Origin: a virus
Taxonomy: Duplodnaviria; Caudoviricetes
Direction: 5' to 3' (one strand)
IMG/VR virus record: IMGVR_UViG_3300032225_000686
Length of the DNA stretch: 64,000 bases
Positions 9,440 to 45,768 of the stretch are shown here, one piece after another (within the stretch, counting starts at the first letter, position 1; the number at the start of each line of letters is the position of its first letter). Made by a program: the position numbers and the translations under genes. The notes under the pieces were generated by a model. The model was not told where the DNA came from and made no database searches. It worked only from the letters and a program-made list of their open reading frames with translations.

Positions 9440-9445
9440 TACTGT

Positions 9446-11552: not shown

Positions 11553-11578
11553 ATAGATACTAATTCAAGGAGAACACA

Positions 11579-12230: not shown

Positions 12231-12441
12231 ACAATACATGGAAGAAGTTTGGGGATCAAAGTGTCCCGACTATGAACCCACCTGCTTTTTATGCAGAGCA
12301 TGGGTGATTTACGAAGTAACAGGAAACATCCCCGATTCAGAGCAGGTGGTTCGTAAGATACATGAGACCGAGGGGTGTGACTTCTTACAGTCACCCACAT
12401 TCAAGAAACTACGAGACTGCGCTCACCGCAAACCACAATGA
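12223..12441 (+). CDS. small Cys-containing hypothetical protein
   Basis: WGSKCPDYEPTCFLCRAW. Confidence 0.5.
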   Translation: MNKQYMEEVWGSKCPDYEPTCFLCRAWVIYEVTGNIPDSEQVVRKIHETEGCDFLQSPTFKKLRDCAHRKPQ

Positions 12442-13250: not shown

Positions 13251-13260
13251 GGAACTCACA

Positions 13261-24184: not shown

Positions 24185-24207
24185 ACTAACGAGCGTTTGA
24201 GGGTCTG

Positions 24208-24245
24208 ACCCCTGTAGGTGTAAAAGCCTACGGGGGTTTTTGTTT
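24208..24245 (+). terminator. intrinsic terminator
   Basis: ACCCCTGTAGG...CCTACGGGGGT followed by a T tract. Confidence 0.8.
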
Positions 24246-24613
24246 ATTGGGATTAGACTGGGTTAACTGGTGGCTGGACCAGCCGGTGGCTATGCGGTCT
24301 CGCCCGATTCAACTTTAAAACTAAACTTCGGGAATGTGGGGGCGTGGGAGCGGGAACAACAAAATGCGATCTGCGAAAAAATTCAAGGTATGGGTTGACT
24401 TCCCCAGAAAACGACCCCCCTGTTTTAGTTTTGCGAGCGGCGGGTTCCCATCCAAGCAAGGGCCGAGTGCCGAGAAAATTATGGAGTCCGCAGGTTCGCC
24501 CAAATAAAGACCCCCCCCCCTTTAATCCACCTCGTTGATTTCAGTTGCCCCGAAATGCCTTTTACCCCCGAGGTAAAAATCTTCCAAAAACAGGTCTGAT
24601 CCTAAATATCATC

Positions 24614-24916
24614 ATGCCAAAACAAACACAGCAAAACGATCCCTCCAACTATCCCTTCAAAGGTCGTTTCCCTTTCAGTACAGAACTAGAATATGAATTG
24701 TCCCCCTTTGCTCGTAACTTTGCATGTTTTACAAATTGCTATAGCGAGTTCACCAAAACAAATCCAGAACCATCAGTAGGTTGTACTGAAAGTAGCGGTA
24801 AGATAAAGAACCCACTTCCCCAAGAGTGTGCTCAATGGGATGGGAAGAGAAGACTACACATCAGCAAGTGTAGAGACCTTTGCTCATTCTATGGAACACC
24901 TACGGGTAATCAGTAA
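24614..24916 (+). CDS. Cys-rich M[AP]KQxQ protein
   Basis: CTAAATA at 24602-24608; MPKQTQ start; 6 Cys. Confidence 0.6.
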   Translation: MPKQTQQNDPSNYPFKGRFPFSTELEYELSPFARNFACFTNCYSEFTKTNPEPSVGCTESSGKIKNPLPQECAQWDGKRRLHISKCRDLCSFYGTPTGNQ

Positions 24917-24945
24917 AACTAAAGGAATCCTTGGAGGGAGTTGTT

Positions 24946-25380
24946 ATGGCAAAACAATCTCAAATCAATACCGGTGTTGTTAGTAAATCATTCCCCTCAT
25001 CAAGCGGGTTGCCTACTGACCCGAATGGGTTCATCTCTTCTAACTGTGCCTTGAGCGTTGGTGGGTCTTGTTCTCAATGCAGCAACTACTTGTCCTGTAT
25101 GTCCCCAAAGGTTAGAGAGTACATCAACAGTTTTCCTTTGTCGGTAAGTAGTGGTCAACCCGTACTAGCAATAGGAGATTTAAAAAACTTTGTCATCGCT
25201 CATTGTAGAGACTGCTATGACATATGCCGTTCCTATCCCTGCTCCTCTATCCCCACCACGAACACATCAACCCTGACCGATTCTCCTAGTTTTTCCAACA
25301 ACCCAAATTCAGGTTATGTCTTAGATGCAACACGGCTAATGTACGGATTGGTTTCTAGATTTGGAAAGTTGAAAACCTAA
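24946..25380 (+). CDS. Cys-rich M[AP]KQxQ protein
   Basis: MAKQSQ start; CxxC clusters; GGAG SD. Confidence 0.6.
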   Translation: MAKQSQINTGVVSKSFPSSSGLPTDPNGFISSNCALSVGGSCSQCSNYLSCMSPKVREYINSFPLSVSSGQPVLAIGDLKNFVIAHCRDCYDICRSYPCSSIPTTNTSTLTDSPSFSNNPNSGYVLDATRLMYGLVSRFGKLKT

Positions 25381-25390
25381 ATATCTAACC

Positions 25391-25780
25391 ATGAAGTCCT
25401 TTCGCCAACACATCTCTGAAATGTTTGTGACTTGGGAGGAACTAGGCCGCCTTGAGCGAGTCCTTGATTCCATGTTTGCTCAGGTTGGATTGGACATCGG
25501 ATTCACCAAGCACTTTTGGGAACGCATCAATGGTAGTCGAATGTATGGCGGAACGGTCAGCATCATGGACATCAAAGACGCATTTCAAAAAACCTTTCAA
25601 CGCTATGCCAAGCAAATAGCAGCAAAGCCAGTTGATTGGAAGGCAGTCATCAACGATGTAACCAAAGGTCTCAACATGCCTTTCACTCTCTCATGGGACA
25701 GAGTAGGCAAGCGTATGGTGATGTTGACTGCCATGAAGAAGCATGACTTCAAGACTCCAGACCCCAAACTCAAGGTGTAA
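25391..25780 (+). CDS. leader-tagged (MKSFRQHISE) protein, possible RNase-toxin-like fold
   Basis: late promoter; FTKHFWER motif. Confidence 0.6.
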   Translation: MKSFRQHISEMFVTWEELGRLERVLDSMFAQVGLDIGFTKHFWERINGSRMYGGTVSIMDIKDAFQKTFQRYAKQIAAKPVDWKAVINDVTKGLNMPFTLSWDRVGKRMVMLTAMKKHDFKTPDPKLKV

Positions 25781-25785
25781 AAAAA

Positions 25786-26511
25786 ATGGCGAAACAGATT
25801 CAATTCTCGGGATTGTCGATGATACCTCCAACAGCCGTGGAGTGCACAGAAGATGCGGGCGGTATTGGCACGGATGTTGTGTATTCTATGGTGGGAGACA
25901 AAAGAGTAACACAGACTACTCAAGCAAAGAAGCCTTGCCCACCACCAATATTTCCCCCAAAAGGAATGACCCAACAAGATTGGGAAAGATTCAAGAAGGG
26001 TCTATGTTGGGCAGAGAGTGATCCGGATTGCCCGTGTTGTGATAATAAGGTTGGTACTGCTAATGATGTTGGAAGATATCAATTCACCCCTCTTGCCGTT
26101 TACGACATCTACAAGTACTACTGCGAAGATTGTAAAACTGATAGATGCAAACAAGGTTGTGCAGAACTAAAGGCTATATGCCCCGATGTAAAAAAAGATT
26201 CCTCTTGTGCAAGTAAGCAGGATGTAGCAGATAAACTTCTTGAACTATGGTCTGGTGGTAGATGGTATCCTGATATAGAAAGAAAACAGGGCGAAAGTGA
26301 TTGGCAATACTACCACAGGATTCTAGGGATTTTCCATTGTGGTAAACCGTCTAAACTTTCCTGTGCAGAGTATGGTCCGCTGCCTCCTCTCACAACTCCC
26401 GGACAGAACTACTTTATAAAGTTCTGGTGTGAATATAAGAGGAACGGGGGAACAGGACCAGATCCTACGGGTTGGAATCAGGATTGGTGCAAGCCCAAAG
26501 GCAACAAGTAA
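25786..26511 (+). CDS. Cys-rich M[AP]KQxQ protein with lysozyme-like motif
   Basis: LCWAES...VGRYQF; many Cys. Confidence 0.55.
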   Translation: MAKQIQFSGLSMIPPTAVECTEDAGGIGTDVVYSMVGDKRVTQTTQAKKPCPPPIFPPKGMTQQDWERFKKGLCWAESDPDCPCCDNKVGTANDVGRYQFTPLAVYDIYKYYCEDCKTDRCKQGCAELKAICPDVKKDSSCASKQDVADKLLELWSGGRWYPDIERKQGESDWQYYHRILGIFHCGKPSKLSCAEYGPLPPLTTPGQNYFIKFWCEYKRNGGTGPDPTGWNQDWCKPKGNK

Positions 26512-26535
26512 TCGGAGAATTTATAGGGGTCATCC

Positions 26536-26820
26536 ATGAAAACCTACCGTGAACTATCCGAGTCTCTTCGTGAATCAACTCTTGCCGACAACGGTAGAGT
26601 TCAGGTTCACTATGATTCAACCAACGGCAAGGGGCAACCAATGACGGTGATAGCAACCGTTCCCCCTGTGCAAGAGCCAGAGATAAATAACAAGTATGAT
26701 ATGATTCGCTATGTAGAAAAGTACATCAAGTCCATGAAGTCCAAAGGCATCATCAAGGGCAACTACGAGGTAGTCTTCCCTGACAGTCCGAAATGGTACA
26801 AATGGGGAGGTCAAAAATGA
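26536..26820 (+). CDS. putative internal head protein (MKTYRELSE leader)
   Basis: N-terminus resembles the T4 IP capsid-targeting sequence. Confidence 0.6.
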   Translation: MKTYRELSESLRESTLADNGRVQVHYDSTNGKGQPMTVIATVPPVQEPEINNKYDMIRYVEKYIKSMKSKGIIKGNYEVVFPDSPKWYKWGGQK

Positions 26821-27659
26821 AGAACTATTTTGAATTCATGCAGCAACTCAACGAGGTCGCTAAGGGCGGAACAGTCCCTTGGGCAGGCAAGACACGCGGT
26901 CCTTACGATAAGGCTAAGGGCGGTAGAGACATGTTGGCAGGTATTGAAGCCGACGCTAGACTCTATGCTCAACGCATGAAGGAGATGCAACCCATCTTCG
27001 CAGCGATTGATGACTACAAGGCAGGCAAGCCTATTGAGCCAACCATGATGAAGCAGATTGAACCTTACATCAAGCAGTTGGGCATTCAGCGTGGCACTCC
27101 AATAGCCGGTCTTGCTGCAAAGCCCGTAGTTGCTAGCCGTCCTCCATTCAACTGGGATAGAAGTGGAGCAGGTTGGTGGCATCCGACCAAGCAATGGTTC
27201 CGCTTCTCCCATGATGGTGCAAACTACCATGTGACACAGGTCTACAAGACTCCTGAGAAGTTTGGCATCACACACAACGAGGTTAGAGCAGTCATCAAAG
27301 AGTATCTACAGAAGAACCGTGACTATGCATACACCGACAAGATAAACAGCAAGAGGATGACATTAGAACAAGCCGTGATTGGTCTAGGAGAGGACATCCG
27401 CAACGGTTATAGAGACATCTTCAGACCACTTCAGAAGTATGTCTACAATCGTGGATGGCTCAAGATCTATGGTGGGCATGACTGCTACATGGAAGGAACC
27501 ATGCAGTCCTCATACAAGGCGGCGATGCGTGAGATCATCAAGGCTTACGGTAACAAGACAGAGTACAATGTTGAGATTGCAAACTATGGTCCTCATGATG
27601 AGTACCCAGATAGTAAGAACTACAACAGGCAGTCTTCCCGCGAGCAGTTCGCTTCATAA
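26817..27659 (+). CDS. putative internal head protein (MKNYFEFMQQLNE leader)
   Basis: leader motif; ATGA overlap. Confidence 0.6.
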   Translation: MKNYFEFMQQLNEVAKGGTVPWAGKTRGPYDKAKGGRDMLAGIEADARLYAQRMKEMQPIFAAIDDYKAGKPIEPTMMKQIEPYIKQLGIQRGTPIAGLAAKPVVASRPPFNWDRSGAGWWHPTKQWFRFSHDGANYHVTQVYKTPEKFGITHNEVRAVIKEYLQKNRDYAYTDKINSKRMTLEQAVIGLGEDIRNGYRDIFRPLQKYVYNRGWLKIYGGHDCYMEGTMQSSYKAAMREIIKAYGNKTEYNVEIANYGPHDEYPDSKNYNRQSSREQFAS

Positions 27660-27665
27660 TGATAC

Positions 27666-29171
27666 ATGGTAAGGTTCAAGTCATTCATTTCTGAGTCCAA
27701 AGGTGTTCAGCCCAGTCGTGTTACGGCGGGGGAGATCATCTTCACGGACAGGCAGAACAATGTGTGGCTTGCAACCGAGTGGCACTACTTCAAGCGGTTT
27801 CTAGACCCCAACAGCAAGAACGAGAACCCCGAGTATCTGCGGGCGGCGCAGATGGCTAGCACCCTTGTCGGTGGTCAGAAGACGAACCCCAAGGGCATCG
27901 TCGTTATCAAGTTGACCAACGACAACAACGCTAGCGTAACTCTCATTCGCTATACCACTACACCCGAAGCCCCAAGCAAGATCGGCAACGAGGAGTTCTC
28001 GCTGGCGGGCTATGAGCGTAGGACCAAGATGGGAGGTCAACTGTCTAGACTATCATCTAGTGATTTCCTCTTGGGTCATACTAAGGTTGAACCACTTCGC
28101 GTTTCAGACAACAACATCCAACACTACATCTTCTATAATGCCAACAGTCTCCGCGACACAATCATTCGCAACATGCAGTCAAGCAAGTTCAATGTGCTGC
28201 GTGAGCCATCGGTGATCCAAGCAACAAAGGAGTTCTTGGATGGTGGAGCAAGACACTTTGATTGGTCCAAGGTTGGTCAGTTAATGAACCAACAGGACCG
28301 TATCAAGTTTGGCATCTACCTCGCATCAGAGTTAGGCTATGCCTTTTGGATTCTCGCAGGTCACAGCATCGGCAAGTTCCCCGGCATGTCCACCATCAAG
28401 TTCTTCGCCGTACCAAGGGACAACACCAACACATCTTATGATTCCTACCTTCGTGGTGTACTCAAGGGTGGTTCGGGTATCGCAAACCTCATGGTGTCCT
28501 CCAAGACGATTGCAGGCAAGAAGGGTGGAGCAAGGTCAACGATCCTCCCTGCTCTCAACGGCATGGCAAAGAGCATGACTGACTACAACACACTCAACAA
28601 TAAGTTCTTGGTTGCTATGCTTCCATACTTCAAGGAGAGTGCAACGGGTGGCAGAACAATCTACCCGTTCATGATTGAGAAGGTGCTTGGACTCAAGGGA
28701 GCAATCCCTGATCCTGTTGTGTTTTGGAACCGCATCTGCAAGTTGCACGGCAAGCGTAAGGGCAACCTATCAGAAGCAGAGATGGCAGAACTAGAGAAGC
28801 AAGTTGTCGCGGTGCAGAAGAAAGTTGCATCGGGTGTCATGCTGTTGGGTATCAACAAGACAGCACCACTCAATCACAACGCTGCTCGCTTTCCATCTCC
28901 TCCACAATGGAAAGATTTCTCTCGCTACATCTCCGACATCTTCTGTGATGCCATCTGCTTCGGTCTAAACTTTGATGGTGCATCAGACATGAGACCAACA
29001 ATCTCATGGCAGATTGATATGGATATCCGAGAGTTCTCCCGCACGGGCATGGTGAACTACCTCATGAAGGAAGTCTCGCAAGAGATGAGGGGAATGTACA
29101 TTGACGGCGGTAAGCAATCCGCAGGCGATCCTTCACGCAACATCACATGGCTTGGGGCAAGACCACTATGA
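27666..29171 (+). CDS. putative internal head protein, possible restriction-endonuclease-like fold
   Basis: MVRFKSFISE leader; P..NT.YD...VSSK motif. Confidence 0.5.
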   Translation: MVRFKSFISESKGVQPSRVTAGEIIFTDRQNNVWLATEWHYFKRFLDPNSKNENPEYLRAAQMASTLVGGQKTNPKGIVVIKLTNDNNASVTLIRYTTTPEAPSKIGNEEFSLAGYERRTKMGGQLSRLSSSDFLLGHTKVEPLRVSDNNIQHYIFYNANSLRDTIIRNMQSSKFNVLREPSVIQATKEFLDGGARHFDWSKVGQLMNQQDRIKFGIYLASELGYAFWILAGHSIGKFPGMSTIKFFAVPRDNTNTSYDSYLRGVLKGGSGIANLMVSSKTIAGKKGGARSTILPALNGMAKSMTDYNTLNNKFLVAMLPYFKESATGGRTIYPFMIEKVLGLKGAIPDPVVFWNRICKLHGKRKGNLSEAEMAELEKQVVAVQKKVASGVMLLGINKTAPLNHNAARFPSPPQWKDFSRYISDIFCDAICFGLNFDGASDMRPTISWQIDMDIREFSRTGMVNYLMKEVSQEMRGMYIDGGKQSAGDPSRNITWLGARPL

Positions 29172-30145
29172 AATCCTTTTCACAGCACATGAGTGAGAAG
29201 TTAGATCCTCGTTTGAAAGCGACGGGTTCAACCGTGAGTGCTAAAGGTATGTCACTTTGTGAGTTGCTAGCAGGCGATGAGATAGAGTTCATCAAACATT
29301 ACAACGCTCTAGTTAAATCTGGGTTAAACGATATAATGCCTACCACAAAGATAAACCCGAGAGCAGGAAACTTCATAAAAGCATTGGGACAATGGTATGA
29401 CCAAGCAGGAGGAAACAAAGATTGGTTCCTTCCTATCTTGCAGGAAGCAGCAAAGTGTCCCAACAGAGCAGCATGGACCTATTACTCAGGCAAGGTGTAT
29501 CGTGGGGTTCTCAAGAGTTTAGAGAGTGTCAACTTGGTTTTGGAAGACAAGTTGGTAAACGATCCAGTAGGTTCAGGGTTAGGACCGTTCTTGGTAGGAA
29601 CAGCAACCTACAATAGCATCTATCCAATGCAGTCATGGTCTGCAAGAGCAGATGTGACATACGAGTTTGCTAACACAAACTACACCAAAAGGTTCATGGC
29701 ATTGAAAGGCAGAAAGCAAAAGTATCCGATGATATTTGAAGCCGAACCGCCCAAGGAACAAACCTTCCTCAACGACAATACTTCAAACTTTATTGGGAGA
29801 TCTACAGAGCACGAAGTTCTTCGTATCAGCAACACACCATTAAAGTGCAAGGTGTACATATGGTATGACTCTTTTGAGAAAATGTTTTGGAATGGTTTTG
29901 TACAAACCAAAGAAGCAGAAGACCTAGCGAAGGTTATGGCAAGAGAGTTGAACAAGAAAGATCCGAAGAAGACCAAGAACGATAAGACCAAGAAGATGCT
30001 GAAGAATATCCTTTCCAAGACATTAGGTTTGGGAGATAAGGGTGCAGAGTTACTTGTGGAAGCAAAGAATAAAAGGTTCTTATACAACATCACTCGCAAG
30101 ATGACCTTTGCTTATCCTGACTTATTGAAAGGCTACCCTGTATGA
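29168..30145 (+). CDS. ADP-ribosyltransferase-fold protein, paralog 2
   Basis: MKSFSQHMSE leader; VYRG, YPMQSWS and EHEVLRISNTP motifs. Confidence 0.7.
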   Translation: MKSFSQHMSEKLDPRLKATGSTVSAKGMSLCELLAGDEIEFIKHYNALVKSGLNDIMPTTKINPRAGNFIKALGQWYDQAGGNKDWFLPILQEAAKCPNRAAWTYYSGKVYRGVLKSLESVNLVLEDKLVNDPVGSGLGPFLVGTATYNSIYPMQSWSARADVTYEFANTNYTKRFMALKGRKQKYPMIFEAEPPKEQTFLNDNTSNFIGRSTEHEVLRISNTPLKCKVYIWYDSFEKMFWNGFVQTKEAEDLAKVMARELNKKDPKKTKNDKTKKMLKNILSKTLGLGDKGAELLVEAKNKRFLYNITRKMTFAYPDLLKGYPV

Positions 30146-31068
30146 AACGATTCACCGACTACATCAACGAAGCCCGTAAAGGCAAGAACGAAGACGAGCC
30201 TTGTGTTATTCCAACCATCTGTGAGTTGTTGTCTCACAAATCACCAATCGCGTTCAAAAAAATTTATAACCGCAGACCTAGTTTGATTTATGGGTTTGAT
30301 CCTGATGGAGCAGCAGAGACAAAGTGGGAGCAGGATTGTATTAGGAAGAATCGAAAGACCATAAACGACAACGAAGAATATGTTGAAGCGGTTCATTCTT
30401 GGCTTGAGAGTGTGCATGGAGCAAAGGGTGGCTTTATGAACAGAATCCTTGCTATGGGTAAATGCCCCAACAAAGGTCCGTGGGCCTGTTGGCAAGGTAC
30501 TGCATACCGTGGTCTGGGGAAGAGAAAAGAGTGGGTTCAAAAACTCAACTTCACCGGAGAGGTAATAACTAAACAAGGACGGAGACAAAATGAACAATGG
30601 CTAGTAGCACAGGGGGAGTACAAAAGCCTATACCCCGCACAGTCTTGGACAAGTGATTGGAATACTGCTCTTAGTTTCTTGTTGAGTAATGAGAATGTAT
30701 ACTCCGATATGAAATTAGGAGTCATAGTTGAGATGAAGTTGACTAGGGACAACACACTCTTCAGCCCAGACTTCATGAATGATATGGTCAAGGGGTATCG
30801 TGAGAGTGAGATCATACGAATAGGAAATGAACCAACGAAGTGTCGGATGTACATTCGCACAAAAGAGTTGCACGACACTCTAAATATGAAGATACAGTAT
30901 CCTGAAAAATTGAGAACGGGCGGTTCAGAAAAACAGCAGGAAGAATACTACATCAATCAATGGCACAAGAAGTTGGCGGTCTTTATTGGAGAGAAGAACG
31001 CAAAGAAATTGATGAGCAGCGCACAGTACTTGAAGATTGTCAAGAACTTTAGAAAGACAGACTACTGA
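30142..31068 (+). CDS. ADP-ribosyltransferase-fold protein, paralog 3
   Basis: MKRFTDYINE leader; AYRG, YPAQSWT and ESEIIRIGNEP motifs. Confidence 0.7.
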   Translation: MKRFTDYINEARKGKNEDEPCVIPTICELLSHKSPIAFKKIYNRRPSLIYGFDPDGAAETKWEQDCIRKNRKTINDNEEYVEAVHSWLESVHGAKGGFMNRILAMGKCPNKGPWACWQGTAYRGLGKRKEWVQKLNFTGEVITKQGRRQNEQWLVAQGEYKSLYPAQSWTSDWNTALSFLLSNENVYSDMKLGVIVEMKLTRDNTLFSPDFMNDMVKGYRESEIIRIGNEPTKCRMYIRTKELHDTLNMKIQYPEKLRTGGSEKQQEEYYINQWHKKLAVFIGEKNAKKLMSSAQYLKIVKNFRKTDY

Positions 31069-31898
31069 TGAAACGCTTCACATCATACATCCCAGAACTA
31101 TTCAGCAGTCCAACAAATCCAAACACATGGAGTAGGGTTGTTGTAAGAACAAACGACTCTGCCAACTACAAGTTCACTATGGCTTGGCTTGCTGATGGAT
31201 ATGCTTTGGCTCCAAAGTGCTGCAAAGAACTTCTCGCCTTCTATGAGAAGAACGACATCATGATTGACCTTAAGTGGAGCACGGGAGTAGGAAAAATGTA
31301 TACCTACCTCAAGGGAAGCAAGGTTCGTTCAGATGATCCTACTTCTCTTGACGGTATGTCTTACTTGGTAGGATTTACCCGACTCTCGGCTATGGGTGCT
31401 GACTACTCCGGTCTCTTCTCATTAATCAATCCTGATATACCACCAATATCTAAATCCGTGGTTTGGGACAACACTTATGAGTTGTGGTTCTCCGCAGACA
31501 ACGCTAGGGTTGGTTTCCCAAACGGCAAGTCAAAAACATTTCCTGCAAACGATCTTGGGTGGGTATGCTCTAGTGAGGACTGCTTGAAAGGAGTAGATGA
31601 TGACTTGGGTATAATGAGTGGGTCATCTGCCATCTCTGTATTCAATACTCTTCTTGCGATCATTGAAGACTTCATCAAAGTAAAACGACCATCGGCTATC
31701 ATCATCGGATCGAAGTTGGGAGCAAAGTCGGCTAGACCTGCGGTATACAAGCGTATTGCCAAGATGGCTGCTCAGAAGTTAGGTGGAACCGTGTATGATC
31801 TAGATCAGTACAGAACACCACAGGCTAGACCCGGATTGATGCACGGGGTTCTTGTCACTTTCAATGTATCAAAAGACTTCTTCGTAATGCCAAAATAA
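31068..31898 (+). CDS. putative internal head protein (MKRFTSYIPE leader)
   Basis: leader motif; coupled to the upstream gene. Confidence 0.6.
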   Translation: MKRFTSYIPELFSSPTNPNTWSRVVVRTNDSANYKFTMAWLADGYALAPKCCKELLAFYEKNDIMIDLKWSTGVGKMYTYLKGSKVRSDDPTSLDGMSYLVGFTRLSAMGADYSGLFSLINPDIPPISKSVVWDNTYELWFSADNARVGFPNGKSKTFPANDLGWVCSSEDCLKGVDDDLGIMSGSSAISVFNTLLAIIEDFIKVKRPSAIIIGSKLGAKSARPAVYKRIAKMAAQKLGGTVYDLDQYRTPQARPGLMHGVLVTFNVSKDFFVMPK

Positions 31899-31917
31899 AA
31901 TCAAATAGGGGGATCAC

Positions 31918-32316
31918 ATGTACGAGTACTCAATATCAGAGGTAATAAAGGTAGTAGACGGAGACACACTAGAGGTTGTCTTTGATGTCGGCTTCAGTAT
32001 GTTCTGCAAGCAGCGTGTGCGTCTAGATGGAATAGACACACCCGAGTCATTCACATCAGATGCCAACGAGAAGAAGTTCGGTCTTGAGGCAAAGGAGTTC
32101 CTCAAGGAGTGGGTTAGCAAGCAGAAGAAACTTCGTGCCAAGACCACAAAGGATGACAAGTATGGTAGAATCCTTGCCCGCATCTACGGGGACAATCCCG
32201 ATGTCTGCATCAACGACGAGATGATAAACAAAGGTTACGCTTGGGTTTATGACGGGGGAACCAAACAGAAAGATTTCAACCACCTTCTAGAGCAGCGTAA
32301 AAAAGCAGCAGTATAA
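31918..32316 (+). CDS. thermonuclease (SNase-like)
   Basis: VVDGDT, RVRLDGIDTPE and DKYGRILA motifs. Confidence 0.9.
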   Translation: MYEYSISEVIKVVDGDTLEVVFDVGFSMFCKQRVRLDGIDTPESFTSDANEKKFGLEAKEFLKEWVSKQKKLRAKTTKDDKYGRILARIYGDNPDVCINDEMINKGYAWVYDGGTKQKDFNHLLEQRKKAAV

Positions 32317-32343
32317 GGTCCGAATAATCTTTGAAAAACCACT

Positions 32344-32381
32344 ACCCACCCTCTTGACCGAGGGTGGGTTTGTGTTATAAT
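32344..32381 (+). promoter_or_regulatory. terminator-like hairpin whose loop is the -35 box of a leaderless promoter
   Basis: ACCCACCCTC-TTGACC-GAGGGTGGGT; TATAAT at 32376-32381; ATG at 32388. Confidence 0.75.
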
Positions 32382-32387
32382 AGTGGT

Positions 32388-32678
32388 ATGGCAAAGAAGA
32401 AGACCAAGACGGTTCGTAGCAACAAGAGCAAACTGCGAGAAGAGCGAGCAAACCGTTCCGCTCCCGGCGAGATGAGGATGCCCGGAAAGATGGACAAGGA
32501 AGTTGAGTTTTGCACTTGGTTTGACCGAACATGGCAGCAGAGAATTGTTCGGATTCAGAGCAGCGACAACGACCACATTGTGAATGTGGATATTGAGAGT
32601 TCGTTGGACTTGCGCGTAATGGCAGCGTGGCTGACTGCTGCTGCGGAATGGATGGACAATCAGGAGGACAGCAAGTGA
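32388..32678 (+). CDS. hypothetical early protein
   Basis: leaderless ATG. Confidence 0.65.
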   Translation: MAKKKTKTVRSNKSKLREERANRSAPGEMRMPGKMDKEVEFCTWFDRTWQQRIVRIQSSDNDHIVNVDIESSLDLRVMAAWLTAAAEWMDNQEDSK

Positions 32679-33043
32679 GCAAGAACAAAACTCCCTGTGA
32701 GGCAGATACCTTCATGTGGCCTCTTCCCCTGACCTTTACCGCCCGCTACAACCTTCGGCGTAATGTCTACAGGGTGGATGACACCACCTACCTTGTAGAG
32801 GGTCCAAGCGAGTACAGCCGTGGGGCTATGGATACCGATGGATCGTTCTTCATGGTAGACTTTGAGGGCGGTCCATACATTCAGAAGGGCATGAGTCTTT
32901 CTCTCGCTCTTCATGATGACCTGCCCGCCAAGATCATAAAGGACGCAAGGTTCGTTACCTATGAGGACAGGTGCAAACTCTTGGGTATTAAGTGCGAGGG
33001 CGAGCCAAAGGAAACCTACGCCTACTGCAAGGTTACGGTCTAA
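32675..33043 (+). CDS. hypothetical protein
   Basis: GGAGG SD, GTGA overlap; VDFEGGPYI. Confidence 0.6.
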   Translation: MSKNKTPCEADTFMWPLPLTFTARYNLRRNVYRVDDTTYLVEGPSEYSRGAMDTDGSFFMVDFEGGPYIQKGMSLSLALHDDLPAKIIKDARFVTYEDRCKLLGIKCEGEPKETYAYCKVTV

Positions 33044-33077
33044 CCCCCTCCACCCCAAGAAAAAACTTCCCCCGAAG

Positions 33078-33120
33078 CCCCTGCTATCGTGCCAACGCCG
33101 ATAGTGGGGGTTTATAAATA
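33078..33120 (+). terminator. terminator abutting the late promoter TATAAATA (33113-33120)
   Basis: CCCCTGCTATCG...CGATAGTGGGGG followed by TTT. Confidence 0.7.
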
Positions 33121-33138
33121 GGAGACAGGAGATTGTCT

Positions 33139-34371
33139 ATGTACAACTATCAGAAGAGATTGCTAGAGGAAGCCACCGCAGTACCACAGAAGGAAGTAGT
33201 CCTTACTGAAGGCATAATTGATTACATCAAGAACGCCATCAAGCGAGAACCACTACTTTCGCAGATCGTGGCTCTTCGTGCCTTGAGGGGCAAGATAAGT
33301 AAAACGGAGTATGAGAAGAGGATTGAAGGCATCAAGAACATGGCGGCTACTTATCTCTTCAAGGGGGCAACTCTTGCTGCTATGGGTGTAAACATTGCTC
33401 ACAGAACAGGTCTAATGAAAATTCTAGACAAGGTAGTTCATCACATAGCACTAGACCCACACCACGCAACAGAGATTGACCACCTCATACACTCTGCGTT
33501 GGGTATGGTAAAGGTCTTTGCAGAATACACCCCCGAAGGAGAAACCTTGGACGAGGCTCCTGCGGCAACAGCAAGCAGCAAAGACTACAACGCAAGAGTC
33601 ATGTCTGCTATGGCTATAGTCAAGGCAGTAAAGCAAAAAGCAAAGCAACTTGGAGTCAGAGTAGATGCTGATGGCAAAACTGTGACTTGCACCAAGGAGT
33701 TTACAAAGGGTGACAAGAACGCATTCCGTCACGCATACGATGCTTGCTATAGCGTCATCTGCTTGTTCAAGTTCACGAAGAACACAAACCTGTGGGGTTG
33801 CTCAACAGCAGGATTTGGTATCGGAGCACAGGAGTGCATCAAGAACGGTCGCATCGTTCTAAACAAGAGTGGAGATGGAACGCAACTACAGTTTAGAGGA
33901 TTGAAGGGTGGTCTATATCTCTCTAACGGAATGCGATTGACTGAAGAGAACCTTGAATCAATTAAAGAAGCCATTACGGTAAAGGATATCCTTGATAGTA
34001 AGAAGAACCCCCAATTGAAGTTCGTCACTAAATTAAAGGAGTGGAGTGGTGTTCGTGAGTTTCTAACTAAGAGTGGAGCGATAGAGTGGCTACATAGCGT
34101 CGGCTACAACGATGTCAACTATGACTATATCAAGGCACAGGTTCTCGGTAAGAAGTACTTCGCTCCTTGTGCGATCATCCACACCGCGATCTATGATCCA
34201 TCGGCCAACGGTGATGTCTCACACAACATCGTGGTACAGCCCAAGGGGATGTTGGATCAGATGTCATCAACATACAAGGGTCTTGGAAGTATCGCACCCG
34301 GCAAGAGAGGCGAGAAGACTTTCAGTACAGGCATGAAGATCGTAGCAACAATACTAGCAGTAGGAGAGTAA
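33139..34371 (+). CDS. late multi-module protein, putative head cargo
   Basis: LLEE, LTE, LDE and IKE potential prohead-protease sites between modules. Confidence 0.55.
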   Translation: MYNYQKRLLEEATAVPQKEVVLTEGIIDYIKNAIKREPLLSQIVALRALRGKISKTEYEKRIEGIKNMAATYLFKGATLAAMGVNIAHRTGLMKILDKVVHHIALDPHHATEIDHLIHSALGMVKVFAEYTPEGETLDEAPAATASSKDYNARVMSAMAIVKAVKQKAKQLGVRVDADGKTVTCTKEFTKGDKNAFRHAYDACYSVICLFKFTKNTNLWGCSTAGFGIGAQECIKNGRIVLNKSGDGTQLQFRGLKGGLYLSNGMRLTEENLESIKEAITVKDILDSKKNPQLKFVTKLKEWSGVREFLTKSGAIEWLHSVGYNDVNYDYIKAQVLGKKYFAPCAIIHTAIYDPSANGDVSHNIVVQPKGMLDQMSSTYKGLGSIAPGKRGEKTFSTGMKIVATILAVGE

Positions 34372-34373
34372 TC

Positions 34374-34529
34374 ATGGGAAGAGCGAGAGATGCAGGAAAG
34401 TCGTTCGGAACCAAGGGAGGCTATAAGACTCGTAAGAGACCCAAGGGTATCTCCCGCGCAGGACTACCGAAGATATACCCGCCGGGTTCGGATGGCGGCA
34501 TAGCAAGAATCAACACCAAAGTAAAATGA
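34374..34529 (+). CDS. 51-aa basic protein missed by the ORF track
   Basis: AGGAG SD; MGRARDAGKSFGTKGG... Confidence 0.5.
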   Translation: MGRARDAGKSFGTKGGYKTRKRPKGISRAGLPKIYPPGSDGGIARINTKVK

Positions 34530-34654
34530 AATCGTTCAAGAAGTTCTTGGAAGAGAAGTGGACAAAGGATTACAAGAAGTCCATCAACTGCTCTAACCCC
34601 AAGGGCTTCTCGCAACGCGCCCATTGTCAGGGCAGAAAGAAGAGAGGTAAGTAA
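34526..34654 (+). CDS. 42-aa T4-like small protein with leader, missed by the ORF track
   Basis: MKSFKKFLEEKWTKDYKKSINCSNPKGFSQRAHCQGRKK; motif recognised from T4-like myoviruses. Confidence 0.75.
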   Translation: MKSFKKFLEEKWTKDYKKSINCSNPKGFSQRAHCQGRKKRGK

Positions 34655-34655
34655 T

Positions 34656-34838
34656 ATGCAGAACCGTAGATTTATAGCACCGAAGTTTCATGAGAGACCA
34701 CAGATAGTAAGTCCATTGAGTGCTCCTCCACCAGAAGTTACAGAAGAACAGAAAGTCGAGGAGACTAATGAAATCACAGAAACACCGGTTGTAGAAGATA
34801 AGAAACTCAAAGATAGCAACAACAAGAAGAACAACTAA
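34656..34838 (+). CDS. small hypothetical protein
   Basis: operon packing. Confidence 0.45.
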   Translation: MQNRRFIAPKFHERPQIVSPLSAPPPEVTEEQKVEETNEITETPVVEDKKLKDSNNKKNN

Positions 34839-34852
34839 CATTGGAGATTTAT

Positions 34853-35437
34853 ATGATGAAGTTTTCAGAAGTCGGTCAAGATTTGTTTGTGGTAAATCAA
34901 TTGAATGGTAAGAGAAATGGTGTGTTTCTTGACATAGGAGCAGGACACCCAACATTCAATAATTATCAAGGTTGGCAGCAGGGAGATACATGGATAGACG
35001 GGTGGTATGAAGGAAACAACACCTTCTTGCTAGAAAGAGATTACGGTTGGACAGGTGTATGTGTTGACCTAGACTCCAGATGGAATGAGGCTTGGAAAAC
35101 AAGAAGAGCAAAGTTTCTAAATCAAAACGCACTAGAGATAGATTACGATAAGTTGCTCTCTGAGATAGCAGTTGATGGTGTTGTCGATTACTTGAGTTTA
35201 GACTTGGAACCTGCGTCCGTAACATACGAGTGTTTGTTGCGTATACCTTTTGATAAGTATCGCTTTTCTGCTGTAACTTACGAACACGATAGTTATAGAT
35301 TCGGTCATCATTTCAGAAACGAATCTAGAGAACTGTTTTTAAAACATGGTTATAGATTAGTTGAAAAGGATGTTAAGTGTCCATCTGGTGGAGAGTATGA
35401 GGACTGGTATGTTCATGAAAGTGTGAACTTACCTTAA
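34853..35437 (+). CDS. FkbM-like methyltransferase
   Basis: GQDLFV, FLDIGAG, NTFLLE..GWTG, DYLSLDLE and EDWYV motifs. Confidence 0.8.
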   Translation: MMKFSEVGQDLFVVNQLNGKRNGVFLDIGAGHPTFNNYQGWQQGDTWIDGWYEGNNTFLLERDYGWTGVCVDLDSRWNEAWKTRRAKFLNQNALEIDYDKLLSEIAVDGVVDYLSLDLEPASVTYECLLRIPFDKYRFSAVTYEHDSYRFGHHFRNESRELFLKHGYRLVEKDVKCPSGGEYEDWYVHESVNLP

Positions 35438-35516
35438 ATAAACGGCTCAACCAATTCGTTTACTCATAAATACATGACCATCCAAATCAGGATGGCACTT
35501 ATAAGGAGAAAGAGTA

Positions 35517-36272
35517 ATGACACGATTCTTTAGATACTTCGCCGCTGTAGCCGCAGTAGTTTTGGCACACAGCACTTTCGCTCAGACTGCTTCGGCTCCG
35601 GCTACGAAGGCATCACCTGCCATGTTCAACAGCGTATCGGTTGACGAGACCTTGACCTTCTGGGGCAAGAAGAATGTTGACACCGTTACTGAGTTGGACT
35701 CAACCATCAAGGGCAAGTTGTATGACCTGCTCGGTTGGCACATCACCGTTCCTGTTTATTCACAGGACACCACCGGTTATGGTGCTATTGATGTTGGTGC
35801 AGATTACGCTTTGTTCACAGGTGAGAAGTTCCTTGGCTCAGTCACCAACTTCAGCGTTGAAGCGGGTGCATGGATGCCAACAGGTTCGGCTGGTTACAAC
35901 ACCGACAATGTGAATCCACATGTTGGTTTCAACTATGACATGACTTGGGGTTCGATTGCCTACACACAGACTTTTGATGTTCTGTGGGTTGGTTCATATG
36001 CTTACACTCCTGTGTTTGGTAACTTCAACAACTACGGTCTCAACGCCGAGTCGTTTGTTGCCTACAAGTGGAGTAATCTACAGGTTGGCGTAGACCTGAA
36101 CCAATGGTACACCGAGGGTAGCAATGTTGCTTTCCTTGGGCCAAAGGCTGAGTGGAAGGTCTCCAACAATGTTGACCTGAACGCAGGCTTCGGCGTTCCA
36201 GTATGGCAGGAAGTAAACGCTGCCAACGAGAACAGTTGGAATGTCACCGCCGGTATCGGCATCAAGTTCTGA
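35517..36272 (+). CDS. outer-membrane beta-barrel protein (COG4313-like)
   Basis: Sec signal peptide, alternating aromatic strands, MPTG, C-terminal GIGIKF. Confidence 0.75.
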   Translation: MTRFFRYFAAVAAVVLAHSTFAQTASAPATKASPAMFNSVSVDETLTFWGKKNVDTVTELDSTIKGKLYDLLGWHITVPVYSQDTTGYGAIDVGADYALFTGEKFLGSVTNFSVEAGAWMPTGSAGYNTDNVNPHVGFNYDMTWGSIAYTQTFDVLWVGSYAYTPVFGNFNNYGLNAESFVAYKWSNLQVGVDLNQWYTEGSNVAFLGPKAEWKVSNNVDLNAGFGVPVWQEVNAANENSWNVTAGIGIKF

Positions 36273-36300
36273 TTTTACAATTTCATAACTTTAGGGATTG

Positions 36301-36330
36301 GGGAGGAGGAAACTCCTCCCCTTTTCTTTT
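36301..36330 (+). terminator. intrinsic terminator
   Basis: GGGAGGAG-GAAA-CTCCTCCC followed by a T tract. Confidence 0.85.
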
Positions 36331-36366
36331 ACCTAAATACTTTTGCATTTTTAGAAAGGGGCTGGT

Positions 36367-36795
36367 ATGCCTATGATAGAACTATTATCAATGCTTGGCG
36401 GATCGGCTGTAGGCTTTCTGTTTCGCTTTATAGCACAGAAGTCACAAGATCAAAAAGAATTGTTTGAACGCATGATGGCTGCAAACACACAGACCACCAG
36501 TAACCAAGACAAAGCCGTAGAGCGAGTTCCACTAGATGTAGGTAAGGGAGTGCGTCAGATTATAGTTCTGTCAACCCTATTTGCCACATTCTTGGCTCCG
36601 TTCGTGTTACCCTTCTTCGGCATTCCTACATTTGTTGAAGTGGATGCAACTCAAACCAACTTCTTGGGGCCTGATGTTCTTAGAAAATACTTTGTGGAAA
36701 TCAACGGGTTCTTGTTCACATCAGAGAATCGTCAAATCTTGTTGAGCATTGTAGGATTCTACTTTGGTTCAGCAGCAGCAGCAAACAAGTCGTAA
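36367..36795 (+). CDS. holin-like membrane protein
   Basis: hydrophobic segments; C-terminal IVGFYFGS; late promoter. Confidence 0.55.
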   Translation: MPMIELLSMLGGSAVGFLFRFIAQKSQDQKELFERMMAANTQTTSNQDKAVERVPLDVGKGVRQIIVLSTLFATFLAPFVLPFFGIPTFVEVDATQTNFLGPDVLRKYFVEINGFLFTSENRQILLSIVGFYFGSAAAANKS

Positions 36796-36805
36796 AGGAG
36801 TAAAC

Positions 36806-37102
36806 ATGAAATACCTAATAGGATTAATCACTTCACTCGTTCTAACGGCTTGCAGCACAGCACCAGTTATTGTTCCCGACACCACAAAAGATAATGTGGT
36901 GATGAAGAAACTAAACTGGGAAATTACAAACAACACGCATCTAACAACAGATTGGGGTTGGATTCTGTGGTATCTGCCTGTAGTATTCTTGGTTGTGGTT
37001 TGGGCTTACAATCAATATCTAAAAACCAAATGCACAGAAGAAGAGACTGATTCAACCACAGAGGCTTCCAAGCCGACAGAGCAACCTCCATCACAGAGTT
37101 GA
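36806..37102 (+). CDS. lipoprotein with C-terminal TM helix (u-spanin-like architecture)
   Basis: lipobox LTAC; WILWYLPVVFLVVVWAY. Confidence 0.55.
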   Translation: MKYLIGLITSLVLTACSTAPVIVPDTTKDNVVMKKLNWEITNNTHLTTDWGWILWYLPVVFLVVVWAYNQYLKTKCTEEETDSTTEASKPTEQPPSQS

Positions 37103-37103
37103 G

Positions 37104-37424
37104 ATGAAGTCTTTTCGGCAGTACATCAAGGAAGAGGGTGTGCCAAACAGCACAGGAATGTTTACCTATGGTCTAGACTTTCAGGTAGATACGGTTCGTG
37201 CTGATTTTGATATTGAGGACTTTACAGATACAGATGATCCAAAGGACAGCAAGGACCGTAAGTACCGTAAACACTTCCCGTGGGAGGTTGAGAACGCTAT
37301 TGAAGCCAACAGCAGACGGGATATGGTTCTTCGTTGGATGAAGAGTGCAGGAGCCAATAGCAAGAAAGCAGTAACTAACAAGTCTTTGCCACTAATTCCC
37401 GATTGGCAGACTACCAAGAGATAA
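37104..37424 (+). CDS. putative internal head protein (MKSFRQYIKEE leader)
   Basis: leader motif. Confidence 0.6.
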   Translation: MKSFRQYIKEEGVPNSTGMFTYGLDFQVDTVRADFDIEDFTDTDDPKDSKDRKYRKHFPWEVENAIEANSRRDMVLRWMKSAGANSKKAVTNKSLPLIPDWQTTKR

Positions 37425-37455
37425 ATAGTAGACACCCCTTTCAAGGACACTAAAC

Positions 37456-39381
37456 ATGAGCGACTTCAATTTCCGTAAGCCACTATCCTCGCAGAAGAAG
37501 AACATCAACGAATCCCTCCGTCACATTAACAGGCTGTATAACAACACCCTGTCGGCAGGTAGAGTGGATGTCGTTAGCATGGAACTCAACGAGGCAGGAG
37601 AGAAGACTATTGGAAAGATTACCTTCAGTCCATACAAGGAAGGCAGTAGGTCGGTATGGATAGTCAAGGGAAAGGGCGGTCAGGAGATTGGGTTCATCAC
37701 CATAGTGAAGAGTACAGCCGTAACGACAGTACCCAATCAGTTGTACTTGGGCAGTCGCGGCGAGGGTAAGTTAGCACTCAACCTTTGGCCAGAGAAGGTT
37801 GGAACCCCACCCACGGGCGGGTACACGCGGGCGTATGTGAAGTACAAGCCAAACCAAATGTTGTCAGCAGCAGCAAAGTGGATCATGGACAACCACAAGG
37901 AGTTGGTAGAAGAGGTTGTTGTTGATGAATCCAAGGAAGAACTAAAGGTTGTCAAGAAGGGCAACACAAAGACAGAGAAGAACAAGTCATCAGAGTTCAA
38001 TGGGGACAAGCGTGGCATGAACCGCTTCGTTGAAGAGGATGAGGTGGAGGAAGTTGAGGATGTTGAGGAAGAGGTTACTGTAATCGGCATGAAGGAGAGT
38101 GTTGAACTCCAAGAAGCATCTTGGTCATCAAGTTCAGGAACTATTGACAAGAAGACAGTAGATTCATTCTTGGACGATCTAGAAAAGGCATACGAGAGGG
38201 GCGGCAAGAGAGCCAAGGTTGGTAATACTGATGGAACAGTAGAGGATTGGATGCAGGATTACAAGGACTGGTTCCGCCGTGCTCCCAAGAATCTTATGGA
38301 CTATCTCAAGACAGAGATATCAAAGATCGTCAAGAAGGAATCACTAGGCACACACATGGCTACTTCAGAGGCATACGCACATCCTGACGAAAAAACTATA
38401 GGTTCATTCTATGAGAAGACGGGGAAGCACTTCTTTGAGTATAGAGTTTCAAAGGATTCTTGGGGTAAGAGCCACGGTCTACCTCATGAAGTCTGTGTCT
38501 CCCGTAAAGACCCGAGTAGCAAAGGTGATTGGAGATCTGCTAATGTCAAGGGAACTGTATGCTACATCGCTGTTGATGAAGATTCAGACGGTAAGCCTGT
38601 GATGGAGAAGTGGGAGATCAAGAGGCATGTCAAGTATGTGAAAGCAGAGGCAGTTGAAGTTGAGACTCAAGATGAAGACCTAAGCGAAGCATACATTAGT
38701 ACAGACGCAATCAAGATAATCCGTGACGATCTCAAGAAGGAATTCCCCAAGTTCAAGTTCATGATTGCTAGAGAGCGCAACAGTTACTCCAGTCTTCGTG
38801 TAGCAATCGTTTCCGGTCCTGTTGCTTTTGCAACCAAGCACGATGGAACACCATTGCCGTTCGCAGACATCAATCACTACTACCCAATGAACTATAAGAA
38901 CGGTGAGATTCTAAAGAAGATTCTTGAGACAATCAACAAGAAGAACTGGGATCGCAGCGACATTCAAACAGACTACTTTGATGTTGGTTTCTACTTGACT
39001 GTAACACAGGGCAATCGTTCATATGGCATGACACAACGCCCATTCACACTAAATGGTGTTGCCGTAAAGAAGCCAACTCCCGTGCAGACACAGCAGAAGG
39101 TTAATGCTATAATCAAGAAGGTAATAAGCAGCAATCCCACCAAGAATGCAGTAACAGGAAAGACACACACCAAGTCTACTCCCGCAAACGCAGGCGGTCC
39201 TTCTGCTAGTCGTTACGGAGTCTTTGAGGATGCTCAGGAAGTGAACGAGAAGTCACCTCCAACAGGTACGGCTCGCAAGTTCAGCAAAGACCCTGATGTG
39301 AAGGCTGCATTCAAGAAGAAGTATGGAGAGCGTTGGAAAGAGGTAATGTACGCTACCGCATGGAAGATGCACAACAAGTAA
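37456..39381 (+). CDS. multi-module late protein containing an LPD29-like domain
   Basis: IRDDLKKEFPKFKF...SGP...SDIQTDYFD; acidic linkers; C-terminal KYGERWKEVMYATAWK. Confidence 0.6.
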   Translation: MSDFNFRKPLSSQKKNINESLRHINRLYNNTLSAGRVDVVSMELNEAGEKTIGKITFSPYKEGSRSVWIVKGKGGQEIGFITIVKSTAVTTVPNQLYLGSRGEGKLALNLWPEKVGTPPTGGYTRAYVKYKPNQMLSAAAKWIMDNHKELVEEVVVDESKEELKVVKKGNTKTEKNKSSEFNGDKRGMNRFVEEDEVEEVEDVEEEVTVIGMKESVELQEASWSSSSGTIDKKTVDSFLDDLEKAYERGGKRAKVGNTDGTVEDWMQDYKDWFRRAPKNLMDYLKTEISKIVKKESLGTHMATSEAYAHPDEKTIGSFYEKTGKHFFEYRVSKDSWGKSHGLPHEVCVSRKDPSSKGDWRSANVKGTVCYIAVDEDSDGKPVMEKWEIKRHVKYVKAEAVEVETQDEDLSEAYISTDAIKIIRDDLKKEFPKFKFMIARERNSYSSLRVAIVSGPVAFATKHDGTPLPFADINHYYPMNYKNGEILKKILETINKKNWDRSDIQTDYFDVGFYLTVTQGNRSYGMTQRPFTLNGVAVKKPTPVQTQQKVNAIIKKVISSNPTKNAVTGKTHTKSTPANAGGPSASRYGVFEDAQEVNEKSPPTGTARKFSKDPDVKAAFKKKYGERWKEVMYATAWKMHNK

Positions 39382-39391
39382 GGAGAAACAA

Positions 39392-39619
39392 ATGGCTAGA
39401 AAGAAGTTGGTTAGCATAGCAGTCACTCCCGAATACTTCCTACATTTCTTTCCCGTAGGAACAGTCATTGACAGACCCGGCCTTCCTCTACTGAAGGTCT
39501 CTGATGCTGCCCCTATGTTGGATGGCAACATCTCTGTTCAGTTTGAAGTCTCAAACAGCATGACCCGAGCGAAGCACACATTCGGTGGCACGAACGGGGA
39601 AAACGGCATTCCATTTTGA
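39392..39619 (+). CDS. hypothetical protein
   Basis: AAGGAG SD. Confidence 0.55.
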   Translation: MARKKLVSIAVTPEYFLHFFPVGTVIDRPGLPLLKVSDAAPMLDGNISVQFEVSNSMTRAKHTFGGTNGENGIPF

Positions 39620-40029
39620 AGTCGTTTAGCCAACATCTTGTAGAACAGGATGCGGCTCCAAAACCCCGTGGCGAGTATTTCGTCAGTCGTTTTAATATTA
39701 GCGGAACTGTTGTGAGTGCTGTCGCTGTATACGAAAGACCCACCAAGAACTACAAGTATAAAACTAAAGTTTGGAGATGGCGGGTTCGTATAAAGACGAG
39801 TGAAGGATGGATGCTGATGGGCTATATCGGCAATGGACAACGACAGGAAGAACTGCCTCCGCTTCGTGTTGGAGATGTTGTGGAGATTAGAGACCTTGTT
39901 TTGTCTAGAGTCACGGGTGGAGATTGGGCGCAACGAAACAAGGTAATCGGCAAACCTCTTGACTATCGTTCTAACTTGTTTTCTCGTCAACTATATGGCA
40001 AGATCAAAAGAACCTCAACCTCCGTATGA
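39616..40029 (+). CDS. putative internal head protein (MKSFSQHLVE leader, TTG start)
   Basis: leader motif. Confidence 0.55.
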   Translation: MKSFSQHLVEQDAAPKPRGEYFVSRFNISGTVVSAVAVYERPTKNYKYKTKVWRWRVRIKTSEGWMLMGYIGNGQRQEELPPLRVGDVVEIRDLVLSRVTGGDWAQRNKVIGKPLDYRSNLFSRQLYGKIKRTSTSV

Positions 40030-40466
40030 AATCGTTCAAGCAACTAAAGTGGGATTTGGGAGAAGCCAAGAAGCAGGATGCTGTTGAGGCTATTGACCGT
40101 TCTGCCAATGTTGTAGTTCGTCCTGCTGACCTACGCCACAAGACCCCCGGCGTAACAGTCATGGTACGCAAGCACAAAAAGCACAAGAGGGGCGAAGAGG
40201 CTTACGACTGGACTCTCCGAGAGCCTAATAGCAATCGCAACTATTATGGGACTCTGAGGAAGAACAAGGGTAAAAAGAGTGGTGGATGGATTGCAATGGC
40301 TACCGATTCCAAGAAAAAAGAAAAGACAGTTATCAAGGATACCCACGGAGATTCCATGAAGGCTGTCAAAAAGGCATACAAAGCCATAGCCAAAGCCACA
40401 GGGTCCACCGCCTTGGGTCTACCACTAATCGCTAGAGGAAATGCGAAATATAGACCCTTGACTTGA
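40026..40466 (+). CDS. basic putative internal head protein (MKSFKQL leader)
   Basis: leader motif; ATGA overlap. Confidence 0.55.
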   Translation: MKSFKQLKWDLGEAKKQDAVEAIDRSANVVVRPADLRHKTPGVTVMVRKHKKHKRGEEAYDWTLREPNSNRNYYGTLRKNKGKKSGGWIAMATDSKKKEKTVIKDTHGDSMKAVKKAYKAIAKATGSTALGLPLIARGNAKYRPLT

Positions 40467-42643: not shown

Positions 42644-42728
42644 GGGCAGATGGCAGAGTGGTCTAATGCAGCGGTTTACTAAACCGCAGAGGTTAACGCC
42701 TCCGAGGGTTCGAATCCTTCTCTGCCCG
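42644..42728 (+). tRNA. tRNA-Ser(ACT), unusual A34
   Basis: GCGGT-TTACTAA-ACCGC; long variable arm; G73. Confidence 0.85.
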
Positions 42729-42743
42729 CTTGGAATACTAAAT

Positions 42744-45162: not shown

Positions 45163-45768
45163 ATGGCTGAAGAGATGGAGACATACACTAGAGAACTAAT
45201 CACCGAGATATCATTGTCTCGCGTTTTCTCTCATGTCGAGAAGAGACCGTTCGCTATCCTCACAGCGTTTCGTGGTAGCAACTCTTTGCAAATGAACCGA
45301 ACGCAGAACAAGAAACTTGAGAACGACATTCGTGCCGCAGGGTTTGGCTTTGAGAAGGTCGTTGGAACTTATGAAGAGGATCTTGGCGATGGCAAGAAGC
45401 GAAGAGTTACCGAAGAGTCTTTTATGGTTATCGGTGATGATGACTCCGATGCAAAGGTCGGAGCAATCAGGGGCTTTGCCAAGAAGATGGGAACGAAGTA
45501 TGAGCAGGACGCTATCTTCTTCAAGTCTCCCAAGTCTCCACAGGGTTTTGTAATCGGAACCAAGGCAGACGCATGGCCCGGCATGGGCAAGGAAGAGTCT
45601 GTTGGTGAGTTCCATCCTAATCGTTTGAACGGTATCTACACAGCATTGAAGACCAAGAACAAGGAACCCATCCGTGGTTTTAAGTTTGAAGAGTTTCATC
45701 ACCCGATGACAGTTACACAGATTTGGGTGCGTCATCTCATGAAGAAGAAAGGTATAGACAATGATTAA
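45163..45768 (+). CDS. conserved large-phage protein (DUF3293-like)
   Basis: SLSRV..H, ILTAFRG, EESF and KYEQDAI motifs. Confidence 0.65.
   Translation: MAEEMETYTRELITEISLSRVFSHVEKRPFAILTAFRGSNSLQMNRTQNKKLENDIRAAGFGFEKVVGTYEEDLGDGKKRRVTEESFMVIGDDDSDAKVGAIRGFAKKMGTKYEQDAIFFKSPKSPQGFVIGTKADAWPGMGKEESVGEFHPNRLNGIYTALKTKNKEPIRGFKFEEFHHPMTVTQIWVRHLMKKKGIDND

Follow-up and report, generated by a model that had tools for sequence, protein, structure and literature searches.

[quoted passage not shown] This leader is probably the phage's capsid-targeting propeptide, working as in T4. The tag sits on 13 mostly unrelated proteins, three of which are paralogous ADP-ribosyltransferases (ARTs). The CTS principle itself is known from T4, and its generality among T4-like relatives has been proposed (PMC9026906). 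New here are the scale and an expanded ART family that has no name; in the literature, coverage of which was incomplete, no aquatic T4-like phage was found described with a CTS set of this expanded kind. The first minutes of infection are determined by the cargo that a phage injects along with its DNA, yet this cargo has been established for only a handful of phages. Should the tag function as in T4, the first 10-15 residues of each protein would reveal what an uncultured T4-like phage packages in advance, and part of the phage 'hypothetical' proteins could be sorted into a testable class. The tag would also account for the recurrent detection of enzymes in cyanophage virions and draw attention to an ART family that is expanded and uncharacterised.

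The window comes from a freshwater (lake) T4-like phage and encodes gp45, gp44, gp62, RegA, gp43 and UvsX, all identified by homology, together with 15 tRNA genes, one of which (42644-42729) has an unusual assignment, Ser with anticodon ACT. The polymerase shares about 50% identity with cyanomyovirus polymerases, and 21.5 kb of the window match a 176,208-bp contig of an ENA metagenome assembly at 100% identity. A late-promoter gene at 51288-51998, lying between those of the clamp-loader subunits gp44 and gp62, is kept in all close relatives. Comparisons drew on IMG/VR contigs G004-G008 and on loci L004 and L005, with the collinear but frameshift-ridden G007 being excluded from statistics. These relatives carry 11-18 tagged genes per 85-120 kb, with the more distant G008 carrying three. 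The content of the interval extending from a vWA/peptidase gene at 21456 to a 251-aa gene at 35517 varies among relatives, although it is always filled with tagged genes. The cargo is thus variable and non-core, with the same locus holding different cassette genes in different relatives while the leader is retained.

Specificity of the leader

All 13 N-termini listed in the initial annotation of this DNA were found to translate as claimed at the coordinates given; that of ORF 39616 starts at TTG rather than ATG and overlaps the upstream stop codon, with its orthologs starting at ATG. To score the leader, a gapped position-weight model was trained on the N-termini of 147 distant homologs of the window ART family, a training set containing no window, T4 or cyanophage sequence, and 6 bits served as the threshold for a call. 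Because the profile used to collect these homologs also spanned the leader columns, the share of ARTs with a leader (75 of 149) is somewhat overestimated. The consensus learned in this manner was M-K-[STD]-[FY]-x-[QED]-[HYFL]-[LI]-x-E. The 13 window genes reaching the threshold correspond to 12 of those listed previously, scoring 6.9-22.3 bits, and to a newly found gene, 7936(-); the remaining listed leader, that of 2355(-), was marginal (1.4 bits). The best-scoring window gene under the threshold reached 2.3 bits, the score distribution being bimodal.

By contrast, only one of 2,621 internal Met positions (0.04%) and 0.12% of shuffled N-termini reached 6 bits, corresponding to a chance expectation of about 0.1-0.3 hits vs. 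the 13 observed. The CTS-like leader proposed in the initial annotation is thus real. Nor is the motif equally common among replication and early genes, as would have spoken against that proposal: the replication genes (gp45, gp44, gp62, RegA, gp43 and UvsX) scored −4.8 to −18.7 bits, all at or below −4.8 bits. Since the leader codons differ at synonymous sites and no DNA repeat family was found at or behind the leaders, the signal lies in the protein. In both predicted structures considered (29168 and 27666), the leader region was of low confidence (pLDDT <50) and apparently unstructured.

When applied to 48 T4 genes, the model placed IPII and IPIII (18.4 bits) and IPI (6.2 bits) as the top three. 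[quoted passage not shown] The T4 IP CTS is cleaved by gp21 (Mullaney and Black, 1996, as reviewed in PMC9026906 and PMC3012670), a protease that works inside the prohead (PMC9958956), and mutagenesis in T4 assigned CTS residues 4 and 7 to targeting and residues 8 and 10 to processing (PMC9026906). F4, the aromatic residue or His at position 7, L/I8 and E10 are among the most informative columns of the leader model.

Behavior of the leader in individual families points to a separable module. Among full-length homologs of the 25391 protein, 12 of 13 scored 18-27 bits, even as the linker to the domain varied by as much as about 25 residues. Leaders of the 27666 family vary in length (10-26 residues) and often fall under the model threshold, with all 16 complete homologs keeping a hydrophobic-x-E site just ahead of the conserved domain. 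In G004 and G005, two neighboring genes, each with a leader of its own, correspond to a single fused two-domain ART gene of L004 and G006. Some orthologs in the 40026 and 2355 families are without the Glu site, and F4 persists even where the leader Glu is lost.

Proteins carrying the leader

The ARTs are encoded at 29168-30145 (+; leader, 16.9 bits), 30142-31068 (+; 21.0 bits) and 923-1666 (+; 14.5 bits). The first contains an R-S-ExE ART (R112, S156, E214 and E216), the second is a paralog 25% identical to it, and the third a further paralog; overall, the three are 25-31% identical and share YRG, QSW[ST] and E-x-E motifs. The R-S-ExE triad is complete in all three and invariant in the alignment considered (A1). 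The best structural match of the 29168 model was the Vis ART, with a middling Z score of 7.0 (rmsd 4.1; 143 aligned residues). R-S-E ARTs occupied most of the top ranks and were likewise the top hits in Foldseek. Motif and fold hence agree that the tag is fused to ARTs, as had been claimed. At E-values of 0.001 or better, the family comprises 534 clusters at 50% identity, with 3-6 copies per related genome and with genes shuffled between relatives; it has no Pfam or PHROG entry, and a tblastn search with the 923 ART returned no cultured-phage match. By analogy with T4 Alt, the three ARTs most likely transfer ADP-ribose to nucleic acids or to proteins of the host.

Ten tagged cargos are unrelated to ARTs, and for most cargos Pfam, PHROG and PADLOC offered no match. 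At the start of the main cassette, 25391-25780 (+; 20.4 bits) encodes a leader followed by a 119-aa domain with a conserved FTxHFxER motif (phrog_23027), which we take to be possibly a BECR-type RNase. Profile searches with this family yielded no Pfam or PDB match, while homologs are found in phiM12 and Melnitz. In phiM12 gp458 (L055:2543-4351), a multi-domain protein of 602 aa, the domain forms the C-terminal module, following a Glu-rich junction. Two Cys-rich ORFs without leaders lie inside (25786-26511) and just before (24614-25380) the tagged cassette, with an unusual non-coding stretch at 24200-24600. Next come a 94-aa orphan behind its leader (26536-26820, +; 15.1 bits) and a domain of no assigned function common to leader-bearing genes of relatives (26817-27659, +; 15.2 bits).

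The gene at 27666-29171 (+; 11.0 bits) encodes a 501-aa protein with an SH3-like N-domain and a possible PD-(D/E)xK-like core. In the predicted model, the invariant residues E222, D259 and S278-S279-K280 map to a helix and the three strands after it, an arrangement that would suit a restriction-type nuclease core. For this 501-aa model (pTM 0.46), no fold match was obtained with Foldseek against the PDB, VIA-wide (best Z 4.5) or in the atlas, where the feature leads to HaeIII/MspI, at 0.82-0.83, lie below the reliable range. The nuclease-like folds put forward in the initial annotation were accordingly not confirmed. The 31068-31898 gene (+; 6.9 bits), with leader-bearing orthologs, encodes a further domain without assignment that may resemble GNAT; its profile drew no PDB match, and tblastn with 31068 no match in cultured phages.

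The shorter tagged genes encode a 32-residue basic Cys-containing peptide conserved in relatives (34526-34654, +; 19.7 bits), a 106-aa protein without assignment, the leader of which is kept in orthologs (37104-37424, +; 22.3 bits), a 137-aa domain with a weak OB-fold hint translated from the TTG start (39616-40029, +; 17.1 bits) and a basic 146-aa protein (40026-40466, +; 19.2 bits), the orthologs of which keep F4 and have mostly lost the L-x-E end. Between the first two of these, 35517-37102 holds three strongly conserved late genes encoding a 251-aa secreted beta-barrel-like protein, a membrane protein and a lipoprotein-like protein. The first two genes are 85-96% identical in G004-G006, the 35517 protein had no homolog in GTDB genomes, and the trio is possibly concerned with lysis or exclusion.

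On the opposite strand, 1663-2355 (−) encodes the marginal leader ahead of an M14 carboxypeptidase fold, identified by a profile match to PDB 3b2y (E 2.8e-10). Both Zn-binding His residues are replaced by Gln in all three homologs, and the His-x-x-Glu plus second His feature is absent, in agreement with the earlier description of a pseudo-peptidase. Csd4 tolerates Gln at the first zinc-ligand site, and the M14 protein is likely, although not certainly, inactive. The newly found leader gene (7574-7936, −; 7.4 bits) is divergent from 7970 across a palindromic late promoter (7957-7960); the palindromic TATTTATAAATA at 7950-7966 corresponds to back-to-back late promoters for 7936(-) and 7970(+).

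Several neighboring genes lack a standard leader. The product of 7970-9415 (+), directly behind TATAAATA, is a 481-aa Tox-MPTase2-like zincin with an intact HExxH at residue 215 and a possible L-F-E site at residue 14, under the model threshold. A 410-aa protein is encoded at 33139-34371 (+), again behind TATAAATA (33113). Its divergent leader ends in L-L-E-E (2.3 bits), and its internal L-x-E junctions make a processed polyprotein possible. The 641-aa multi-module protein of 37456-39381 (+), with an LPD29 domain (residues 415-474), contains six L/I/V-x-E junction sites. Its last ~50 residues recur in relatives as a small separate module (L004:18077-18331; 72-79% identity), in every case following a hydrophobic-x-E site, which suggests a cut-up polyprotein. 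Lying behind late motifs, 7970, 33139 and 37456 may represent variant or polyprotein cargo. Lastly, 45163-45768 (+) encodes a SAM lyase (PF23780, E 5e-13) with an Alt-type E-L-I-T-E at residues 11-15. It is 86% conserved in relatives and homologous to S-CREM2 gp6, a protein detected in virions. The SAM lyase, missed in the initial annotation, is likely an anti-restriction cargo.

Transcription, head genes and virion proteomes

The nearest upstream site is a TAAATA late-type motif for 10 of the 12 classifiable tagged genes vs. 27 of the 82 others (p = 0.0013, operon-level test), such that late-type transcription of tagged genes is supported at the sequence level; a per-gene test (motif within 70 nt) was not significant, a p-value pooled across relatives lacks independence, and 39616 and 40026 lie behind an early-type site. 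One such TAAATA motif (25377-25384, +) heads the main cassette, the block starting 14 nt after 25377, and the corresponding cassette of G004-G006 is likewise headed by this motif. The window is without head genes, the T4-type head module, gp21 included, lying outside. Contigs that overlap G006 via a shared gene (93-96% identical) encode gp20, gp21 (PF03420, E~1e-33), gp22 and gp23, with additional tagged genes located after gp47. In G006, a fibre-like gene adjoins gp23. A gp21-type protease is present in G008 as well.

A link to virions was sought in cultured cyanophages. In S-CREM2, for which a virion proteome has been published (PMC10665884), exactly five ORFs reach 6 bits (gp6, gp13, gp14, gp136 and gp154). 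All five were detected in virions, while none of 166 non-virion ORFs is tagged (Fisher p = 3e-5). The authors allow for co-purification, and no mention of the leader was found in the passages considered (PMC10665884). Moreover, virion detection does not show injection. In G006, 9423-13642 (L034) contains a tagged gene for a 999-aa cytidylyltransferase-domain protein and a tagged neighbor, homologous to S-CREM2 gp154 and gp87. In S-SZBM1, by contrast, none of three high-scoring ORFs is among the 30 virion proteins detected, a shallow list (PMC9146016). All three are small (70-165 aa), and one, gp64 (L057-L060), which scores 17 bits, is CP12, here a probable false positive or else packaged CP12. 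A post hoc 9-residue variant of the model recovers the S-SZBM1 virion cytidylyltransferase, whereas the strict model does not. The tag thus predicts virion presence in one data set (S-CREM2) but not in the other (S-SZBM1).

Proposed role and comparison with known systems

In the scheme proposed, late-expressed, non-essential proteins would begin with M-K-[ST]-F-x-x-[HYFL]-[LI]-x-E, positions 4 and 7 of which would bind to the scaffold core of the assembling prohead. Cleavage after L/I-x-E by the prohead protease gp21 would then free the mature domain inside the head, and some or most of the tagged proteins would be ejected with the DNA, acting in the first minutes of infection. By analogy with T4, scaffold binding, cleavage and packaging are likely, with the S-CREM2 tally and the gp21 of sister genomes lending packaging indirect support, whereas ejection and an anti-host or anti-defence activity are about evenly poised between holding and failing. 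Judged from the genes, the protein cargo is probably much larger than that of T4, and the ARTs and the SAM lyase are plausible candidates for an anti-host role. The effector arsenal envisaged in the initial annotation is an overstatement, with several tagged ORFs being tiny (42-146 aa) and without a recognisable enzyme.

That the motif arises from chance or from a translation-initiation bias (Lys/Ser-rich, A/U-rich starts) amplified by paralogy could be argued from three of the 13 genes being paralogs and from M-K starts being common. Such an origin is, however, already refuted, given the 0.04-0.12% null, the bimodal scores, the ten cargos unrelated to ARTs and the blind recovery of the T4 IPs, and its probability is negligible. 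The leader could instead serve solely for inhibition, as a propeptide cleavable by gp21, or for localisation in the late phase, holding toxic enzymes silent or at the site of assembly, with these enzymes acting late in the infected cell and unpackaged. The 27666 family, conserving the L/I-x-E end better than leader length, and the S-SZBM1 tagged proteins, not detected in virions, would fit such a role. Nonetheless, the T4 targeting residues 4 and 7 are strongly conserved, F4 outlasts the Glu, gp21 acts inside the prohead (PMC9958956) and the S-CREM2 data point to virion presence, and we hold this explanation to be improbable.

Somewhat better placed, although still unlikely, is the possibility that tagged proteins are packaged and clipped yet are not effectors, instead serving inside the head in a DNA-condensing or core-filling role or being degraded like gp67 and gp68. 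Indeed, the products of 34526, 26536, 37104 and 40026 are tiny or very basic and show no enzyme signature, and the M14 protein has apparently lost its zinc ligands. Against this stand the complete R-S-ExE triad of the three ARTs, the low scores of T4 gp22, gp67 and gp68 (−13 to −20 bits) and the 3-6 ART copies per genome, the expansion and shuffling of which between relatives suggest an arms race. The preferred reading thus remains that of a capsid-targeting propeptide. In its broadest form, to which we would give a little under an even chance, the T4 capsid tag serves aquatic T4-like phages generally as an export label that can be read from sequence, and this clade loads at least 12 proteins per virion, including up to six diverged ARTs, delivered before phage gene expression. 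If this is true, the tag would make it possible to search uncultured phages for injected proteins of anti-defence and host takeover.

Like the T4 IP CTS, the window leader is a 10-residue N-terminal peptide with informative positions 2, 4, 7, 8 and 10, found as a conserved tag ahead of unrelated, variable cargo in a clade with a gp21-type protease. It differs in scale, with 13 strict and about five variant genes in 64 kb vs. the three IPs of T4. The cargos, moreover, reach 501 aa, include enzymes, have no noted similarity to IPI-III and are known here from genes. T4 Alt, a head-packaged and injected ART, has a shorter propeptide, cut at ITE-6 (PMC5694885). The window ARTs share with Alt the R-S-ExE motif and a propeptide predicted to be removed by gp21. 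Unlike Alt, they carry an IP-type rather than an Alt-type leader, are compact (247-325 aa vs. 682) and occur as 3-6 paralogs per genome; they are without sequence similarity to Alt (profile E 0.06 vs. Alt alone). As to membership in the T4 Alt/ModA/ModB group, no homology to Alt, the only member compared, was found, nor did any Pfam or PHROG ART family match.

The S-CREM2 virion enzymes (SAM hydrolase, kinase and cytidylyltransferase; PMC10665884) carry the same leader as seen in the window, the SAM lyase of which is homologous to S-CREM2 gp6, although S-CREM2 contains about five tagged genes in 175 kb, as compared to 11-18 per 85-120 kb in the window's clade. Finally, polyvalent and MuF-fused phage effectors, predicted to be head-packaged and injected (PMC5512222, PMC9503650), draw on the same domain repertoire, namely, ART, zincin, LPD29 and possibly BECR. 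Rather than being joined in large or MuF fusions, however, the window domains are mostly encoded by separate genes, each with a short tag of its own.
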